Source: a virus
Lineage: Duplodnaviria > Caudoviricetes
Strand: one strand, 5' to 3'
DNA length: 28,467 nucleotides
IMG/VR virus record: IMGVR_UViG_3300033067_000650
Span: 1-28,467 of that record
Below the pieces are notes generated by a model that made no database searches, was not told the DNA's origin, and saw nothing but the letters and a program-made list of their open reading frames with translations. Made by a program: the position numbers and the translations under genes. Shown one piece after another: positions 1,026 to 20,595 of the stretch; within the stretch, counting starts at the first letter, position 1, and every line of letters starts with the position of its first letter.

Positions 1026-1147
1026 GGTGTCTCCTCGTGTCGGACGTAGTCGGGTGCGGCGTGCAGGATGCCGATGAACCGGCAGCGCTGGCTGAGATAG
1101 ACGAGGGCGCCGCACTGGACACAGCGGCGGAGCGGTTCCGGGGTCAT
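1022..1147 (-). CDS. 41-aa hypothetical protein with CxxC (MTPEPLRRCVQCGALVYL...)
   Basis: Read by hand (below the ORF-track cutoff). Fills the gap exactly, with 4-bp overlaps at both ends. Confidence 0.6.
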   Translation of the reverse strand: MTPEPLRRCVQCGALVYLSQRCRFIGILHAAPDYVRHEETP

Positions 1148-1638
1148 GCGCTATCCCGCGCGACGTGACTGCGGTAGAGCCGGTAGTTCGAGAAGGCCTT
1201 GAGGATCGGCACGTCGTGCGCGGCAGCCATCTGGAGCCGGTCGTCGGCCTCATGGCGGTGACCCTGCGGATTCGTGTAGGTGTTGTCGTCGCTGTAGAAG
1301 TGGCCGGCGGGGCAGGCGATCTTGGCGGCGTTGGTTCGTGACAGCGGCGACGGTGCGGCAAGCCCGGTGTCGTGGGCGTGCTGGTTGTTCTCGGCGTAGG
1401 TGACCGCTTCGAGGTGGTCGGGCCGGACGCACCGCTTCACGCCGCAGATGTGATTGATCGTCAACCCGACCGGGATGGGTCCGACTTGCGTTAGGTACGA
1501 GAACTTGTGGGCGGTCCACGGGGCATATCCGATTGCCCCGTAGCCGCGGGACTGAGTGCCGGCGGTCCACAACCAGCACCCATCGGTCTTGTCGACCTTG
1601 GTCCAGAATCGCGAAATCTCCGCGTCGGTGAAGATCAC
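1144..1638 (-). CDS. HNH endonuclease
   Basis: RFWTKVDKTDGCWLW...AHKFSY...INHICGVKRCVRPDHLEAVTYAEN. GTG start at 1638 overlaps the upstream stop. Confidence 0.85.
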   Translation of the reverse strand: MIFTDAEISRFWTKVDKTDGCWLWTAGTQSRGYGAIGYAPWTAHKFSYLTQVGPIPVGLTINHICGVKRCVRPDHLEAVTYAENNQHAHDTGLAAPSPLSRTNAAKIACPAGHFYSDDNTYTNPQGHRHEADDRLQMAAAHDVPILKAFSNYRLYRSHVARDSA

Positions 1639-1817
1639 GCGGAACGCTGCCCGGCGATGAAGTCCTCTACGTCTTGCGGCCGGTATCGAATCAGCCCCTC
1701 CATGCGCACCGGCAGAAGAATCCCGGATTGCTCCCATCGCTCCAGCGTCTTGCGGGTGACCCGGAGCCGTTCGGCGACCTCATTCCGCGTTAGTAGCGGT
1801 TCCTGTGTTGGTGTCAT
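1635..1817 (-). CDS. Cro-like / excisionase-like MerR-type HTH protein
   Basis: LLTRNEVAERLRVTRKTLERW...IRYRPQDVEDFI. First gene of the leftward operon, divergent from the repressor. Confidence 0.85.
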   Translation of the reverse strand: MTPTQEPLLTRNEVAERLRVTRKTLERWEQSGILLPVRMEGLIRYRPQDVEDFIAGQRSA

Positions 1818-1823
1818 GGCTGA

Positions 1824-1853
1824 AACGTAGTCATACCTACGGTGTCACGTCAA
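1824..1853 (-). promoter_or_regulatory. SigA-like leftward (lytic) promoter, predicted leaderless transcript
   Basis: -35 TTGACG (1853-1848), 18-bp spacer, -10 TACGTT (1829-1824), 6 nt before ATG 1817. No SD. Confidence 0.7.
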
Positions 1854-1899
1854 GTCTCTCCCAATACCCGCGTGTCGTATAGGATTTCGAGGCGTCAGC

Positions 1900-1972
1900 G
1901 CCCCCGTAGCTCAGTTGGTAGAGCAGTGGACTTTTAATCCATGGGTCGTCCGTTCGAGCCGGACCGGGGGTA
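1900..1972 (+). tRNA. tRNA-Lys(UUU)
   Basis: Full cloverleaf: acceptor GCCCCCG/CGGGGGT, D arm GCTC-AGTTGGTA-GAGC, anticodon arm GTGGA-CTTTTAA-TCCAT (TTT at 1933-1935), T arm GTCCG-TTCGAGC-CGGAC, discriminator A. Followed by CCG, so CCA is not encoded. Confidence 0.95.
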
Positions 1973-1977
1973 CCGGG

Positions 1978-2020
1978 TTGCGAAATGTCGCATGATGTCG
2001 CATGATGTCGGTATGACCAC
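1978..2020 (+). promoter_or_regulatory. repressor promoter (leaderless) overlapped by phased ATGTCG repeats / putative operators
   Basis: -35 TTGCGA (1978-1983), 17-bp spacer, -10 CATGAT (2001-2006), 6 nt before ATG 2013. ATGTCG at 1985, 1995 and 2005. Confidence 0.6.
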
Positions 2021-2318
2021 AATGCAGAATGCAAGCGAATCGCTGCATGTCACCTTCGGGGACCGACTGCGACGTCTCCGGCTAAGTCAGGGGATGGACC
2101 AGAAGCAGTTCGGGGACGCCATCGGCGTCTCGGGGGCCACCGTGGGCAAGTACGAACTACAGCTACACGACCCGCGCCAAGCCAGACTGGTCCTGAACAG
2201 CATCAGGCTCGTGTACGGAAAAGACGCGGCAGCCTTCGTGGCTGGCGCAGACCCGCAACCTACGGGTTGTCGACCTCGGCACCTGGTTCTGGTGCCGCAA
2301 CTTTCGGAGGTGGCGTGA
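2013..2318 (+). CDS. immunity repressor, XRE-family HTH
   Basis: TFGDRLRRLRLSQGMDQKQFGDAIGVSGATVGKYE is an XRE HTH. Start placed at ATG 2013 because longer starts overlap the tRNA or promoter. Confidence 0.88.
   Translation: MTTMQNASESLHVTFGDRLRRLRLSQGMDQKQFGDAIGVSGATVGKYELQLHDPRQARLVLNSIRLVYGKDAAAFVAGADPQPTGCRPRHLVLVPQLSEVA
2250..2269. other. putative attP common core within the repressor gene
   Basis: ACCCG-caaccta-CGGGT is an inverted repeat with a 7-bp spacer. The reverse complement AACCCGTAGGTTGCGGGT resembles the tRNA anticodon-stem 3' strand, variable loop and T-stem 5' strand. Confidence 0.55.
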
Positions 2319-2551
2319 TGAGTGACGCGGGTCGAACGTTGGCCGTGACCGAGGCCTACGAGTGGGCTATCGACGTGTTCGAGTCGATGGACCGGGAGGA
2401 GGCGCTGGACTATTTGCGCCGTGTCGCTGCCAGGCAGCGGCAGAGCTACGAGCGAGAGATCGAGTATGCGCGGATCGCTCGGTTGCTGGGTCCTGCCTAT
2501 TCGGCTGAGTCCCGTGTCGTTCCGACGGTTGAGCCTGACCGGGTGACGTAG
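2318..2551 (+). CDS. hypothetical helical protein between repressor and integrase (77 aa)
   Basis: GGAGG then a TGATG overlap with the repressor stop. Confidence 0.7.
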   Translation: MSDAGRTLAVTEAYEWAIDVFESMDREEALDYLRRVAARQRQSYEREIEYARIARLLGPAYSAESRVVPTVEPDRVT

Positions 2552-2588
2552 CAGCGGAAAGTACAACGGGGGGTCGGAGGTGGTGGCA

Positions 2589-3404
2589 ATGATTCCGTCC
2601 GTGACTAATCGGGGTAACGGTAAGGCGCTGGACACGTGGGCGACGCATTGCGCGGCGGGAGACATGTCCGAGGGCAGCATCTACCTGTATCGGCGCTATC
2701 TGGTGCGGTTCCTGCGCGGCCGGGCGGTGTATGCGGTGTCGGTGGAGGATTGCGAGGCGTGGCTGTCGGAGCATGATTGGGCGCCGTCGACGCGCCGCTC
2801 GGCGATTAGTGCGCTGCGGTCGTTCTACCGGTGGGCGTTCGTCCGAGGGTTGATGGCGGAGGATCCGACGGCGGGGTTGCATCGGCCGAAGTTGCCGGAG
2901 CCGTGTCCTAAGCCGTGCCCGGATGCTGCGTTGGCGCAGGCGTTGCTGGCTGAGGGTGACGTCTGGTGGCTGGTGCGATTAGCGGCGACGACTGGTCTGC
3001 GGCGTGCCGAGTTGGCGCGTGTCGCCAGCGCCGATGTGGAGTTGCATCGGGACGGGTATTGGTTGCGGGTCGCGGGTAAGGGTGGCCGGGTGCGGATGGT
3101 GCCGTTGGATCGGGCGGTCGCAGAGTGGGTGATGGCTCGGCATGGGTGGGCGTTTCCGTCGCCGCGTAAGCCCGGCGAGCATGTCACGCCGGATTGTGTG
3201 GCGCGGAGGTTGAAGCGGATCCTGTCCGGCTACTCCGCGCACACGCTGCGCCACCACTACGCGACCGAGGCCTACCAGGAGTCCGGGGATTTGTTGGCGA
3301 CGCAGCTCCTCCTCGGGCACCGCTCGCCGGTGACGACGATCGGCTATGTGCAGCAGGATCCGGCTAGATTGAGGAAGGCTGCCGCGGCAACGTGGGTGGT
3401 GTGA
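2589..3404 (+). CDS. int: tyrosine integrase lacking an N-terminal arm-binding domain
   Basis: Catalytic set GLRRAE (R), GKGG (K), HTLRH (HxxR), LGH, GY (Y). Core-binding domain WAPSTRRSAISALRSFYRW. About 270 aa. GGAGG precedes ATG 2589 (GTG 2580 is an alternative start). Confidence 0.93.
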   Translation: MIPSVTNRGNGKALDTWATHCAAGDMSEGSIYLYRRYLVRFLRGRAVYAVSVEDCEAWLSEHDWAPSTRRSAISALRSFYRWAFVRGLMAEDPTAGLHRPKLPEPCPKPCPDAALAQALLAEGDVWWLVRLAATTGLRRAELARVASADVELHRDGYWLRVAGKGGRVRMVPLDRAVAEWVMARHGWAFPSPRKPGEHVTPDCVARRLKRILSGYSAHTLRHHYATEAYQESGDLLATQLLLGHRSPVTTIGYVQQDPARLRKAAAATWVV

Positions 3405-3420: not shown

Positions 3421-4137
3421 ATGAGTTTCCAGTATGGGCAACTCTCCGATGATGGCCGCTGGTGGTGGGACGGCTATCAGTGGCAGCCGGCCCAGCCCCA
3501 ATGGCCGCAGCAGCCGCCAGCGGGCCAGATTCCCGGCCCAGGTCCCGCATGGGGTCAGCAGCCACAGGTTGTGCCGGGGTCGTTGTCTGCGGACGGCCAG
3601 TGGCGGTGGGACGGGCAGCAGTGGATCGCCGCGACACGACCGCAGGTCAAGGGTAAGTCGCACACCGGCGTGATTGTTGGTGTTGCAGTGTTAGGCGGGG
3701 TGTTGCTGCTCGGCCTGGTGGCGGTCGCGTTCGGCAGTAATCAACCGCAGCCGGGTAGCGCGGCCTCGTCCGCGTCGCCTCGCACGTCATCGGCACCTAT
3801 TGCTCCGGGCGCGACGCCGACTCGATCTGTTGAGAAAGGCATTGGGTCGCAGGACGCGTCTGGGGACGTCACGCTCGGACCGATCAAGAAGAGCGAATTC
3901 GGCGGCGTGACCGTCGTAGTCATGGCGAAGAACAGCAGCCCCAAGCGGTCGAACTACGCGGTTGATCTGGCAGCTGAATCGCCGGACGGTAAGACTCAGT
4001 ACGCCACGACGCTGGCCTACATCGAGAACGTCGAGCCAGGGCAGACAGCCAAGGACGAAGCAGCGTTCATCGAGGACATCCCGGCAAACGCGAAAGTCGT
4101 CGTGCAGACAGTTGAGCGCACGTCTGCCGTCGGTTGA
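3421..4137 (+). CDS. membrane protein with two Trp-rich repeats, one TM helix and an extracellular beta domain (candidate prophage-expressed exclusion protein)
   Basis: LSDDGRWWWDGYQW and LSADGQWRWDGQQW repeats, Q/P linker, TM VIVGVAVLGGVLLLGLVAVAF, C-terminal NVEPGQTA (FxLYD-like) domain. Confidence 0.8.
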   Translation: MSFQYGQLSDDGRWWWDGYQWQPAQPQWPQQPPAGQIPGPGPAWGQQPQVVPGSLSADGQWRWDGQQWIAATRPQVKGKSHTGVIVGVAVLGGVLLLGLVAVAFGSNQPQPGSAASSASPRTSSAPIAPGATPTRSVEKGIGSQDASGDVTLGPIKKSEFGGVTVVVMAKNSSPKRSNYAVDLAAESPDGKTQYATTLAYIENVEPGQTAKDEAAFIEDIPANAKVVVQTVERTSAVG

Positions 4138-4211
4138 ACAGTTGACGCACGCGGCGGAGGCGGCATGGGTGGCCTAGGCGGGGGATAGAGTATTTCGATG
4201 GAAGATCAGCC

Positions 4212-16960: not shown

Positions 16961-17286
16961 CCTGTCACGACCCGGAGCGTCGCCTCGTAGTGATGCACAG
17001 CCGAACCCGCATAGACCGGCCACGGAGGCCCTTCGACCTCGTAGGTAGTGCCACCATCCACGATGCGGTTAGAGGCGCTCACGGTGGCGCTATTCGTCAT
17101 TAGCAGCCATTGGGAGACCGAGGCATCCCGGCCGCGTGACTGGTCCTCGGTCCGGGACTGCTGATCCACCCTGCCGGTGATCGTTGAGGATGACCAGACG
17201 CTCGGCACGGTCGCGCCGTACGCGTCGGTCGTGGTCGTCTGCGTCTGTAGCGTCAGTGTGCGTAGGAGGCCGGCTGGGATTCCCAT
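16957..17286 (-). CDS. head-to-tail stopper (head closure)
   Basis: TDAYG...NRIVDGGTTYEVEGPP...HHYEATLRVVTG. Confidence 0.85.
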   Translation of the reverse strand: MGIPAGLLRTLTLQTQTTTTDAYGATVPSVWSSSTITGRVDQQSRTEDQSRGRDASVSQWLLMTNSATVSASNRIVDGGTTYEVEGPPWPVYAGSAVHHYEATLRVVTG

Positions 17287-17948
17287 CGTCTCGCCTCCTC
17301 AACTAGTTCGCGCATCAGGTCCGGGTCACGTCTGGCATCGCGGTAGCGCTTGTCGAGCCAGCGGTTGTTATCCGATGGCCGCCGGCAGTTCGGTGCCTCC
17401 GGGTGCCACAGGTGGATCAGCGGACAGATCCGACGCGGGTTGATCTCATTACCCGTCAGGCAGCGAAGCGCGAGGCCGATGCAGTGGTCCTCGCCACCCC
17501 ATCCGCGGAACCTCGGATCGAACCCGCCGACCATGTCCCACGCCTCGCGGGTGACGACCAGAATCCCGCCGCCGGGTAGAGCCGGGTAGGCCGAGCGTTC
17601 CAGCCGTTGCCGGCCAGGCATCCCACGGATCAGCCGGTCAGATGACTCCCGGTCGAGACGTTTCACAACCGAGTGAGGCATGGCCCAGCCACGGATGCCG
17701 GCCTGACCGATGGCACGGTCGAGATGTTCCGGTGCGACGAACGAATCGGCGTCGGCGAGGACCAGGACATCCCCGGTCGTCTGATTCGCCACGGGATTGA
17801 CCGCGGCGCCTTTCGACCACTCCGGAGCTGGGCATTGCGCGAGATGCACCCGGTAGCCCTGCGATTCGTACAGACCTGCGACGTATTGCCGTGCGCGTAT
17901 CCGGATCGGGTCGTCATCGTGTCCGTGGCCGATGACGACGTCGATCAT
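17253..17948 (-). CDS. glycosyltransferase (GT-A, GT2/GT7-C-like)
   Basis: WSKGAAVN, LADADS (DxD), GGFDPRFRGWGGED, HLWH. Confidence 0.9.
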   Translation of the reverse strand: MIDVVIGHGHDDDPIRIRARQYVAGLYESQGYRVHLAQCPAPEWSKGAAVNPVANQTTGDVLVLADADSFVAPEHLDRAIGQAGIRGWAMPHSVVKRLDRESSDRLIRGMPGRQRLERSAYPALPGGGILVVTREAWDMVGGFDPRFRGWGGEDHCIGLALRCLTGNEINPRRICPLIHLWHPEAPNCRRPSDNNRWLDKRYRDARRDPDLMRELVEEARRWESQPASYAH

Positions 17949-18697
17949 GGCGCCGGGTCGAAGATCAGGTCAGGGTTCGACTCCGGCTCACCGGACCAGA
18001 ACCACGTGCGGAACACCTCGTGTAGTGCTTCGTCCCCGCCAGCCTCGTGCAGGTCGGCGTATTGGCGCCAATGCGCGCCAGCCGACTCGGGGAGATCCGT
18101 GCGCCGTAGCGCCTCGGCGCCTTGCACGGCCTTCCGGACGAACTGTTCCGGTGACCTGTAAGGGAAGTGACGTGTCACCAACACTCGCCTCGCAGTGCGG
18201 CCTGTGAACCTTCCGTAGTCGGCGGCGTGATTCCCCATCTGAATCGTGAGGTTCTCATTCACCCGACAAGCGATCTTCGGCAACCGGACAGGTCGCCGGT
18301 TGCGCCACCCCATCGTTGTAATCGGGTTGTCCCCGTCCGGGTCGAGCGCGGTCGGAAGATGGTTGTAGAGCTCGGACTCGACGATGGAGTAGCGGTCGAT
18401 CTCGTTGAGGCAGTCCGCGATCGTGTCGTGGTGCGGCGAATAGATCCACTCGTCCGCGTCGAAGGGGACGACCCACTCGGCACCCATCGACCTCGCGACG
18501 CCGGCGAGATGGGTCATCTTCTCCGACTGCCGGTACGCGGGGTCGGTGTCGGCCAGGAGCGTGATCTGCGACCCGAACGATTCGAGGACGTCGTAGGTGC
18601 CGTCCACGGAGAGATTGTCGGCGACGATGACGTGGTCGACCTGGTCAATCATGTGCGCCACGACCGGACCGACGATGTCGACCTCGTCGCGGACCAT
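17945..18697 (-). CDS. glycosyltransferase family 2-like (true start may be about 18718)
   Basis: MVRDE, VADNLSVDGT, PFDADE (DxD), HFPYRS. Confidence 0.9.
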   Translation of the reverse strand: MVRDEVDIVGPVVAHMIDQVDHVIVADNLSVDGTYDVLESFGSQITLLADTDPAYRQSEKMTHLAGVARSMGAEWVVPFDADEWIYSPHHDTIADCLNEIDRYSIVESELYNHLPTALDPDGDNPITTMGWRNRRPVRLPKIACRVNENLTIQMGNHAADYGRFTGRTARRVLVTRHFPYRSPEQFVRKAVQGAEALRRTDLPESAGAHWRQYADLHEAGGDEALHEVFRTWFWSGEPESNPDLIFDPAP

Positions 18698-18713
18698 CGC
18701 AATCCCGACGACG

Positions 18714-19385
18714 CTAATAGCCGACCCCGACCCGTGACGTGCCGATGTGTTCGACCCATTCCCCCGAATCTCGCGATCCCCAGAAGGCGGCGCGCGCGTT
18801 CGGCTCGGAGCGGTACAGGTTCACGCCGAACCGTCCTTCCGAGTTGCGGCCCTTCGGCCAGCCATGGGAGGCGATGAAGGAATGCCGGACCAGGTGAGGA
18901 TTCGTAGTGAAGAAGGCGCGATGTTCCAGCCACTGCGCCTCGGCGTCAGCAGCGTCGGCGTACCAGTCCGGGTGGGACTCGACGATCCCGCCGGCGGCGC
19001 GCTCTTCGGCGTTCCACGGTTGACGTCTCAGCGCCATCTGCACGAGGTACGGGTGGCGCCGCATCACCCCGGCCATGTCGGCAAGGTTGACCGGACGCGT
19101 GAACACGAAGTCATCTTCAGTCGAGGCGACGTACGGGTTGCGGTCGTGCTCGCGAATCCACTTCCACATTGATCGGTAGGCGCCTGCGAACCCCGAGCGG
19201 TGATCGGTCGAGTGAATCGTCCAGCGGTCCCCGAACGTGTCCCAGAGCCAGTCGGTGTAGTCGACATCGCCGGAGTCGTCGTGGATGAGCCGCACTGAGA
19301 TCGGTCCGGACAGGTTCGTCATGGACTCGATCGCGCGGCTCAGGCAGTCGCGGCGGCCGTCCGTCATCACGACCAGCGAGATCAT
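18714..19385 (-). CDS. glycosyltransferase (GT-A fold)
   Basis: LVVMTDGR, IHDDSGD, TEDDF, VEHIG. Confidence 0.82.
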   Translation of the reverse strand: MISLVVMTDGRRDCLSRAIESMTNLSGPISVRLIHDDSGDVDYTDWLWDTFGDRWTIHSTDHRSGFAGAYRSMWKWIREHDRNPYVASTEDDFVFTRPVNLADMAGVMRRHPYLVQMALRRQPWNAEERAAGGIVESHPDWYADAADAEAQWLEHRAFFTTNPHLVRHSFIASHGWPKGRNSEGRFGVNLYRSEPNARAAFWGSRDSGEWVEHIGTSRVGVGY

Positions 19386-19942
19386 GCGGCGGCCTTGATC
19401 TGCGCCATCAGCTGCCGCGGATTCTTCACGCTTTGGTTGCGCGAGTGCGGCGTCACCCAGGCCCGGTAGACCGCGTCAGGTACGTGCTCGATCACGGCAC
19501 CCGCACGGGACGCCCTCAGGAAGAGGCAGTAGTCCTCCCACGCCGGCCAGTCCTTGAATCCTCCGAGGTCCATGAACAGATCGCGACGGATCGCGGTTCC
19601 GATCACACACGGGTTCATCGTCTCGATGTTCCGGTCGGCGAGGGTCCGCGGTGCGGTAGCTGAATGGTCGGTCACCCATGAGACAGCGGGTGCGCGCAGA
19701 TCACCGGAGGCGGCGAGGATGGCATCGACGTATCCCGGCGTCAGTTCGTCGTCGGCGTCGAGATGAATGAGCCAGTCGCCGGTCGCCTTCGCAGCTCCCC
19801 GATTCCGGGACTCGTGCAACGTCTGCGCGTGGGTGTGGATCACTTCGGAGCATTGACCCAGAGCGGAGGGAAGTGCCCGCGTCATCGCGAGGTTCTTCCA
19901 CGACGGGTCGCCGTAGGTCGAGATGCAGATGGTCACGTCCAC
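19382..19942 (-). CDS. glycosyltransferase family 2
   Basis: VTICISTYG, SRNRGA, HLDADD, GGFKDWPAWED. Confidence 0.9.
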   Translation of the reverse strand: MDVTICISTYGDPSWKNLAMTRALPSALGQCSEVIHTHAQTLHESRNRGAAKATGDWLIHLDADDELTPGYVDAILAASGDLRAPAVSWVTDHSATAPRTLADRNIETMNPCVIGTAIRRDLFMDLGGFKDWPAWEDYCLFLRASRAGAVIEHVPDAVYRAWVTPHSRNQSVKNPRQLMAQIKAAA

Positions 19943-20595
19943 AGGACGCGCCTCGCTCGGAACCGACCCGCCGATGCTCGCATCCGTTCCTGTTGCGCGC
20001 GGTAGTTGTCATCCCATTCGGCCTTACCCCACATCGGATGCAGATGCTCGATGACGGCCTCGGGGCAGTGAACGTAGACCCCGCGCTGCCGTGCCGTACC
20101 GACACATTCGTCGTCAACGTACTCATGGGCGTAGCCCTCATACAGCGGTCCTGGTTCGCCGTTGATTGTCGGCAGCTGCGCGTACACTCGAGTCATCAGC
20201 GTGTGCGTCGAATGACCCTTGGCTGTGCGAGGATTCCCACCATCGTTGGTCCCGACGACCTGGACCGTGTCGGACAGTTTCGACGTGGCAGCCTCAAACC
20301 ATCCCGGCTTCGGTGCGATGTCGCACGCACCCAGAAGGATCAGCGGGTCGTATGTTGCTCGGACGCCGGCGTTGATCTTGTGCGCGTAGTCCCCGGACCG
20401 TCGAGGCCGGAACGTCATCAGGTCCGCCTTGCGACCCTTCAGATCAGACAGAACCTCGTCGTCCCCATCGGTGCACAGCCAGAGCATGTGTGCGTTCGGG
20501 GTCGACTTCTGTACTGCTTCGATGAGCGGTCCGATGGTGTGCGCTCGGCCCAACATCGGAACGAGGATCAGCAGGTCAGTGTAGGACCAGGTCAC
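19933..20595 (-). CDS. glycosyltransferase family 2-like
   Basis: ILVPMLGR, YAHKINAG, LGACD, HEYVDDE, IEHLHP. Confidence 0.82.
   Translation of the reverse strand: MTWSYTDLLILVPMLGRAHTIGPLIEAVQKSTPNAHMLWLCTDGDDEVLSDLKGRKADLMTFRPRRSGDYAHKINAGVRATYDPLILLGACDIAPKPGWFEAATSKLSDTVQVVGTNDGGNPRTAKGHSTHTLMTRVYAQLPTINGEPGPLYEGYAHEYVDDECVGTARQRGVYVHCPEAVIEHLHPMWGKAEWDDNYRAQQERMRASAGRFRARRVLWT

Follow-up and report, generated by a model that had tools for sequence, protein, structure and literature searches.

Integration-dependent immunity is known from mycobacteriophage BPs and from phages of clusters G, I, N and P (PMC9262239, PMC4557955; these and all other papers are cited here from excerpts). The forms of the BPs repressor are described in PMC4557955, and PMC9262239 states that, in integration-dependent systems, the tRNA 3' end "must" be part of the core. 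tRNA-dependent lysogeny has been reported for Fionnbharth (K4), cluster L, Cain (K6), Gaia (X) and the Gordonia CQ2/DL phages in PMC10865867, which treats integration-dependent immunity as a separate system, and PMC12582341 likewise lists the two mechanisms as separate examples. Here, we describe a cassette at positions 1635 to 3404 of a 28-kb phage contig (IMGVR_UViG_3300033067_000650; the whole 28,467-base virus record is referred to as the window) that probably combines both: an integration-dependent immunity switch which would break the host tRNA-Lys(UUU) gene and which, for this reason, would need its own phage copy of that tRNA.

The main elements of the cassette are given below. Their order (cro/xis gene, tRNA-Lys, repressor, open reading frame and short integrase) is the one read in a first-pass annotation of this DNA, and every element lies where it had been placed.

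1635 to 1817, minus strand: gene in the Cro position, encoding a MerR-type helix-turn-helix (HTH) protein of 60 amino acids (PF12728, E 2.2e-10; phrog_66, E 9e-11)
1900 to 1974, plus strand: phage tRNA-Lys(UUU) gene (ARAGORN; Rfam RF00005, 68.1 bits), with paired changes among the sister copies described below
2013 to 2318, plus strand: immunity repressor gene, viral form, 101 amino acids, HTH_3 (PF01381/PF13560; phrog_2328)
2251 to 2265, within the repressor gene: predicted common core of the phage attachment site (attP), 15 bp, found exactly in 10 of 10 candidate host genomes
2251 to 2267: inverted repeat with 5-bp arms and a 7-bp spacer (2256 to 2262), the predicted integrase sites and strand-exchange region
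2265 to 2318, plus strand: repressor tail, 17 codons with LSEVA at the end, which integration is predicted to remove and which is a predicted degradation tag
2318 to 2551, plus strand: 77-amino-acid open reading frame (orf77) between repressor and integrase, present in six of nine sister contigs, in two of them truncated
2589 to 3404, plus strand: tyrosine integrase without arm-binding domain, of the BPs/Gordonia GMA5 type, 271 amino acids (PF00589 and PF02899)

We compared this arrangement with the BPs genome, which has the same layout and an attP annotated inside the repressor. As in BPs, the repressor and integrase genes share one strand and the cro-like gene is divergent, the predicted attP lies in the repressor reading frame antisense to a tRNA, the stop codon would be supplied by the host, and both repressor and integrase have small hydrophobic C-termini (EVA and WVV, respectively, the integrase relatives ending WVA). 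The integrase opens directly with a SAM-like core-binding domain (residue 15–25 onward), and its identity is 38% with BPs Int (E 3e-23) and 43% with the GMA5/GRU3 enzymes; its top phage matches are Gordonia phages GMA5, GRU3 and Emperor together with cluster G phages including BPs. Domain search and phage matches thereby agree with the first reading of a BPs-type integrase lacking the arm-binding domain. In contrast to BPs, the window core spans 15 bp instead of about 35 and is devoid of the tRNA 3' end, a tRNA gene is placed between cro and repressor and a 77-amino-acid reading frame between repressor and integrase, and the core is read in a different frame (DPQPT in the window, GFEPPT in BPs).

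The cassette also shares several features with the tRNA-dependent lysogeny phages, namely a short core (15 bp in the window, 8–17 bp there) from which the host tRNA would not be rebuilt, a phage tRNA of the same isotype (there most often Lys-TTT), a tyrosine integrase with a bacterial attachment site (attB) overlapping a tRNA gene (the window target being assigned from a sister contig), close relatives with long versus short cores, and natural tRNA-less variants. However, the Fionnbharth-related integrases are described in PMC10865867 as lambda-like, with arm-binding domain and arm sites, their attP lies beside int and their immunity is independent of integration, whereas the window cassette has an armless integrase and a predicted attP within the repressor. 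Since one published feature of each system is thus missing (the rebuilt tRNA of one, the arm-type integrase of the other), the cassette is best filed as a hybrid variant.

A partial precedent is the tandem prophage prophiT36-2 of Mycobacterium abscessus T36, for which complementation by a tRNA-Thr is the authors' speculation (PMC9934374). It resembles the window in that prophages with integration-dependent immunity sit at a tRNA gene, the tRNA that is rebuilt is impaired, and a prophage tRNA of the same isotype is proposed to make up for this. It differs in that its core spans 40 bp and has two mismatches in the acceptor stem, and in that the second prophage carries the tRNA, about 2 kb from attR, from where it would rescue damage done by the first, whereas in the window both parts stand in one phage cassette, conserved across three repressor types. 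The excerpts of PMC9934374 present other MabB prophages as being without a tRNA, those of PMC12243558 and PMC12160441 report no tRNA, and according to PMC8092301 tags, gene spacing and attB types vary. Each mechanism alone is already published, and their combination in one cassette appears to be new: as the first-pass annotation had supposed, we found no description of a single cassette combining them in a literature search whose coverage leaves out most subscription papers and supplements, although the case of M. abscessus T36 (in the part of that paper cited here) takes away some of this novelty.

At the repressor gene's 3' end, the codons for DPQPTGC occupy 2250 to 2270, the arms of the 5-7-5 inverted repeat 2251 to 2255 and 2263 to 2267, and 16 residues ending LSEVA follow DPQPTG, all in agreement with the first reading; its statement that, in tRNA orientation, neither a T-loop nor an acceptor stem follows this segment holds as well. 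The 15-bp core is antisense to the anticodon-stem 3' side, the variable loop and the T-stem 5' side of tRNA-Lys(UUU), and the ten genomes with the exact core had been chosen as candidate hosts for their tRNA-Lys(UUU). Between the repressor gene and a host tRNA-Lys(TTT), the exact match is 15 nt long, compared to at most 12 nt for the shuffled gene (2000 shuffles); in 60 shuffles of the whole window the longest match was 14 nt and 15 nt was never reached. Outside the phage's own tRNA, the core is the only window match of at least 12 nt to host tRNA-Lys(TTT). This shuffle test is not fully independent, because the host tRNA was found via a pattern partly built on the core; independent support is provided by the 35-bp core of sister contig L180 and by real prophage junctions, both described below, and the putative attP of the window is assigned by homology to these long-core relatives. 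The spacer 2256–2262 is identical in the host tRNA, and hosts differ from attP by one base in the phage-side arm, a search of genome contigs for a host tRNA exactly matching that arm giving 0 matches; in L180, the arms are 6 bp long and perfect. Two other placements of attP were considered and rejected: 2552–2588 or the region downstream of int as a tRNA-Lys site, where no host-tRNA match of at least 12 nt is present, and the phage's own tRNA, which differs from the core at 7–10 of 16 positions in the phage copies (7 of 16 in the window).

The repressor tail was present in 13 of 14 repressor homologues (best-alignment identity 35–100%; some of these homologues resemble assembly mosaics) and in 68 of the 69 family sequences listed. 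Core and tail are fixed although the repressor HTH diverges to 55–60% and, as far as these alignments indicate, the tail is a conserved module.

Scanning metagenomes for the att motif, we obtained ten loci, nine of which are sister contigs; the remaining one (L179), considered as a tenth sister, was an unrelated chance match and was dropped. In L180, the full antisense tRNA 3' half is kept within the repressor frame, where it reads WAPRDSNPQPTG; the tail of L180 is almost the same as in the window, and the N-terminal part of its integrase shows 90% identity over 31 amino acids. Similarly, a contig of run X2 is identical to window positions 2251–2380 with a restored antisense T-arm in front. 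A pattern built from the L180 shape gave at least 120 genome loci, with 121 matches among the matches listed, to which the following comparisons refer. The L180 site matches tRNA-Lys(TTT) over 35 bp and other called isotypes over 26–28 bp (maximum 28), an uncalled fragment reaching 32, and the window 15-bp core is found in 12 of 14 Lys(TTT) entries. Because the 15-bp core alone is not isotype-specific, the isotype was assigned from L180; with 35 bp against at most 28 bp for other called isotypes among these listed matches, tRNA-Lys(UUU) stands as the predicted target, as named at first pass. Bearers of the site in this list include Nostocoides, Nanopelagicales metagenome-assembled genomes (MAGs), a Jatrophihabitans MAG and Arcanobacterium, and a single tRNA-Lys(TTT) gene is present in G001, G003, G006 and G239 (four of six candidate genomes checked). 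Extra tRNA-Lys(TTT) 3' halves were also seen in host genomes, at L197/L200 (G008:C3), L279/L280 (G301) and L201 (G007), and mark other elements inserted at the same site.

We simulated integration for five att sites (three short-core and two long-core) with four host tRNA genes each. All 20 junctions stop after D, ending DPQPTD or NPQPTD, and therefore the window repressor would shorten from 101 to 85 residues; where the first-pass annotation had expected ACG GRT TAA, the simulated recombination yields ACG GAT TAA and a repressor ending DPQPTD. The short core spans 15 bp with 4 of 4 host tRNAs. A tRNA was rebuilt in 8 of 8 long-core junctions and in 0 of 12 short-core junctions, for which only unrelated pseudo-calls were obtained, at the most relaxed setting, in line with the earlier proposal that integration fails to rebuild the host tRNA. 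Since no T-arm or acceptor stem is supplied, the host gene would stay broken and the phage tRNA would take over.

Real junctions were found in relatives. When 301 genomes of the Nostocoides family were searched with a repressor profile, 104 gave hits, mostly weak HTH matches, and G239 carries a 16.7-kb prophage element with both junctions at tRNA-Lys(UUU). At one end, a repressor ending WAPWGSNPQPTD before its stop codon is fused to the host tRNA 5' half; at the other end, the host tRNA 3' half is accompanied by a tail with AAA as its last residues, and the integrase there shares 44.5% identity with the window enzyme. Most of the 31 loci from a scan of viral sequences were ordinary tRNA genes; among the 31 were also three prophage ends (L261, L264 and L272) in which NPQPTD is followed by a stop, as well as the free forms L245 and L249, which carry tail and integrase. 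The real junctions of G239, L261, L264 and L272 are all long-core and distant from the window phage. The repressor-splitting switch operates at tRNA-Lys(UUU) in these long-core relatives. The prophage relatives foreseen at first pass, with repressors ending DPQPT(D/G), were hence recovered in part, as four long-core ends of the NPQPTD type and no short-core prophage. A mirror-image switch was noted at L009:2545-2919, where a repressor reading frame holds the sense 5' half of tRNA-Lys(CTT) (about 2824–2862); the tail after it ends RRAA, and a related integrase comes next. Moreover, L282 (G420:C120), in a MAG from the order of G004, has a cassette of cro, repressor ending LRLVA and armless integrase, in which no tRNA was called and no tRNA-like core recognised.

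We then related the cassette tRNA to core length across the nine sister contigs, of which three are long-core and six short-core. The long-core contigs L180, L185 and L187 have no tRNA between cro and repressor or elsewhere on their 1–3 kb. Among the short-core contigs, L184 and L186 carry a complete cassette tRNA-Lys(TTT), in L183 the contig edge leaves the tRNA 3' end visible, and L181 stops before the tRNA position. In L182 and L188, a 25-nt deletion takes out the tRNA anticodon arm and the cassette integrase is lost, orf77 being joined to the final codons of an int gene and followed by IetA, a broken IetS and an N-truncated second integrase. The 25-nt deletion was also present in runs X1 and X2 and the orf77-int fusion in X1, where tRNA deletion and int loss are found on two overlapping contigs. 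Taken together, the presence of the cassette tRNA follows the short core among the nine contigs, with the exception of one int-less lineage. The long core of L185/L187 has a two-base T-loop swap in common with the short-core phages, and its att site is possibly a recombinant or intermediate state; ARAGORN calls the simulated L185 junction as a tRNA, whose function is uncertain. Among 57 viral loci with related integrases, many of them cut near int, no tRNA was called between cro and repressor.

The three complete phage tRNAs (window, L184 and L186) are all of isotype Lys(TTT). All their stem pairs are kept by two-sided changes (in an alignment that also includes two host tRNAs), and all three have an anticodon loop unchanged from that of the host. 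AAA accounts for 26 of 7150 codons in 26 window genes and is absent from the capsid gene; given this rarity, a lytic translation need for the tRNA is unlikely.

These observations suggest a model in which, after infection, the 101-residue repressor with its C-terminal tag would be degraded, and the armless integrase would carry out recombination between the 7-bp attP spacer and the host tRNA-Lys(UUU) gene, in its variable-loop region. An in-frame TAA from the host anticodon loop would then yield a stable 85-residue repressor ending DPQPTD, and tail, orf77 and int would relocate to the opposite prophage end. The phage tRNA would stay beside the repressor and take over AAA decoding, and its 7 of 16 mismatches to the core would prevent it from becoming a target itself.

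Several observations weigh against such a switch in the window phage. None of the 69 close repressor sequences listed ends at PQPTD, and no attL/attR junction was found in the Logan contigs of 7 runs, which is not proof of absence because these contigs drop rare variants. No short-core prophage was found in six genome samples (241–401 genomes each, at family, order and phylum level), four 2-mismatch matches in one sample being at control level, and no short-core junction is among the matches listed for 120 viral loci with a host tRNA 5' half. Matches in G301, tried as a prophage candidate, are stacked tRNA 3' repeats without any cassette-protein match. Furthermore, the lineages are few (the three long-core contigs represent one repressor, and L182/L188 are 99.9% identical), L182/L188 retain the second, N-terminally truncated integrase 1.8 kb downstream, L185 and L187 combine a non-canonical T-loop with the absence of a tRNA on their 3-kb contigs, and the window integrase ends VV where VA or AA would be usual. 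As no integrated short-core prophage was found, we infer its integration and its need for the tRNA from the evidence above. On the side of the switch, two distant clade members, P0295 and P0394, have TD as their last two residues, lack a T-loop motif ahead of it and, judged by these ends, could be short-core prophage forms or cut genes, and P0213, P0218 and P0270 read PQPTDY, nearer to the host tRNA.

The missing junctions could also mean that the short-core phages largely ceased to integrate, core and tail being relics and the tRNA serving lytic growth or counter-defence. We regard this as improbable. The attP form is indeed the only one seen, the summed contig depth reaches hundreds in runs X5 and X11, and a lineage without the tRNA and the cassette integrase exists, being the deeper form in run X1. 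However, the window integrase is intact, with residues R138, K164, H218, R221, H244 and Y253 invariant and the catalytic set complete, and the core and tail have not changed alongside the diverging HTH. In addition, the tRNA is broken in the sole int-less lineage, the opposite of what a lytic role would predict, and the phage rarely uses AAA.

Immunity might instead depend on integration while the tRNA is dispensable, because attB lies in another tRNA gene (e.g. Asn-GUU) or because the host has two tRNA-Lys(UUU) genes. Both variants have a basis in the data that counts against a need for the phage tRNA: among the matches listed, the 15-bp core also occurs in 4 of 36 Asn, 7 of 22 Thr(TGT) and 7 of 15 Lys(CTT) entries, and the MAGs G002 and G004, which are host candidates only, hold two tRNA-Lys(TTT) genes. 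This explanation is nevertheless even less probable, since the long core of the closest sister fits Lys(TTT) best (35 bp versus 26–28), the phage tRNA is of exactly this isotype in all three complete copies, a broken Asn gene would get no rescue from a phage tRNA-Lys, and most candidate genomes checked (4 of 6) have one copy. Least probable of all appears a third account, by which the tRNA was acquired against host anticodon nucleases cutting tRNA-Lys(UUU), an idea raised with the name of PrrC in PMC10865867, and still has this main role, core shortening being a later side effect. Lys(UUU) genes are common in actinophages, as it would require, but the unchanged anticodon loop in 3 of 3 copies gives no sign of an evasion change there, and the tRNA gene shares its strand with the repressor and is disrupted in the int-less lineage. 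Such an origin can be compatible, as history, with the integration-dependent switch and its tRNA requirement as the present function.

The immunity switch with its own tRNA bears on two points in the literature. The repressor has been thought forced to encode the whole tRNA 3' half (PMC9262239, in the excerpts cited), and the window cassette appears to escape this via its own tRNA. The excerpts of PMC10865867 leave the order of tRNA gain and core shortening open; in the present family, all of the states occur on a common tail and attP module and the integrases are about 90% identical over the parts covered, so that this order becomes testable by swaps. More tentatively, and with the odds somewhat against it, the contigs may represent a widespread uncultured actinophage clade with a fused switch, in which one recombination would activate the repressor and create dependence on the phage tRNA. 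Gain of the tRNA would have freed the repressor from encoding the tRNA 3' half, allowing many immunity types to be swapped onto one module of 15-bp core, tail and integrase; long-core, T-loop-damaged, short-core-plus-tRNA and tRNA-less/integrase-less sisters would be transition stages, and distant repressors with xTDY plus tail further members. For sludge actinobacteria, the cassette would also provide an armless integration system that is very compact and has the tRNA as built-in selection.

Three control elements are predicted around the divergent starts of the cassette genes.

1824 to 1853, minus strand: predicted early lytic promoter, read by eye (-35 at 1853–1848, -10 at 1829–1824)
1880 to 1885, plus strand: predicted -10 element for the tRNA gene, present with one change in the divergent sister L184
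2001 to 2006, plus strand: predicted -10 element for a leaderless repressor transcript, six bases before the ATG at 2013, with equal spacing in L184

The predicted early lytic promoter has an 18-nt spacer, and its -10 ends six bases before the ATG of the Cro-position gene; a sigma-70 promoter scan of the window did not include these elements among its predictions. An inverted pair (I15, 76% complementary) at 1820–1840 and 2007–2027 falls where the Cro-position gene and the repressor gene begin, and its halves are possible operators. The Cro-position gene, whose position equals that of BPs cro, is also listed in PHROG as excisionase/regulator-like, and directly downstream of it an HNH endonuclease gene (1144–1638, minus strand) is shared by several sister contigs. 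The repressor, with alternative possible starts at 1992 and 2022, is 32% identical to annotated Gordonia phage immunity repressors, and orf77 had no match in Pfam, PHROGs, PADLOC or Atlas. After int, window positions 3421–4180 hold a gene for a membrane-anchored protein of 238 amino acids and then a relic int 3' end (EQLTHAAEAAWVA; repeat D7). In L188 (860–2577, minus strand) and also in L182, this cargo slot is occupied by the IetA and interrupted IetS anti-phage defence pair; the difference of the post-int slot among sisters suggests cargo swapping between int 3' ends.

Regarding the setting of the cassette, the window has a G+C content of 65%, its head-tail-lysis block lies on the minus strand, and the nearest relatives of its capsid protein are from actinobacterial phages. 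Sequencing runs holding the cassette are sludge, wastewater, soil, biofilm and river metagenomes, and sludge actinobacteria are the likely hosts. Searches of viral contigs for close relatives gave none, one of them returning a single unrelated tRNA array. Between the head and tail genes, five successive reading frames (17253–20595, minus strand) are predicted, by eye, to be glycosyltransferase-like. Finally, a 26-nt repeat at 436–461, 735–760 and 33–58 is placed at the ends of small early genes, where it overlaps ribosome-binding sites.

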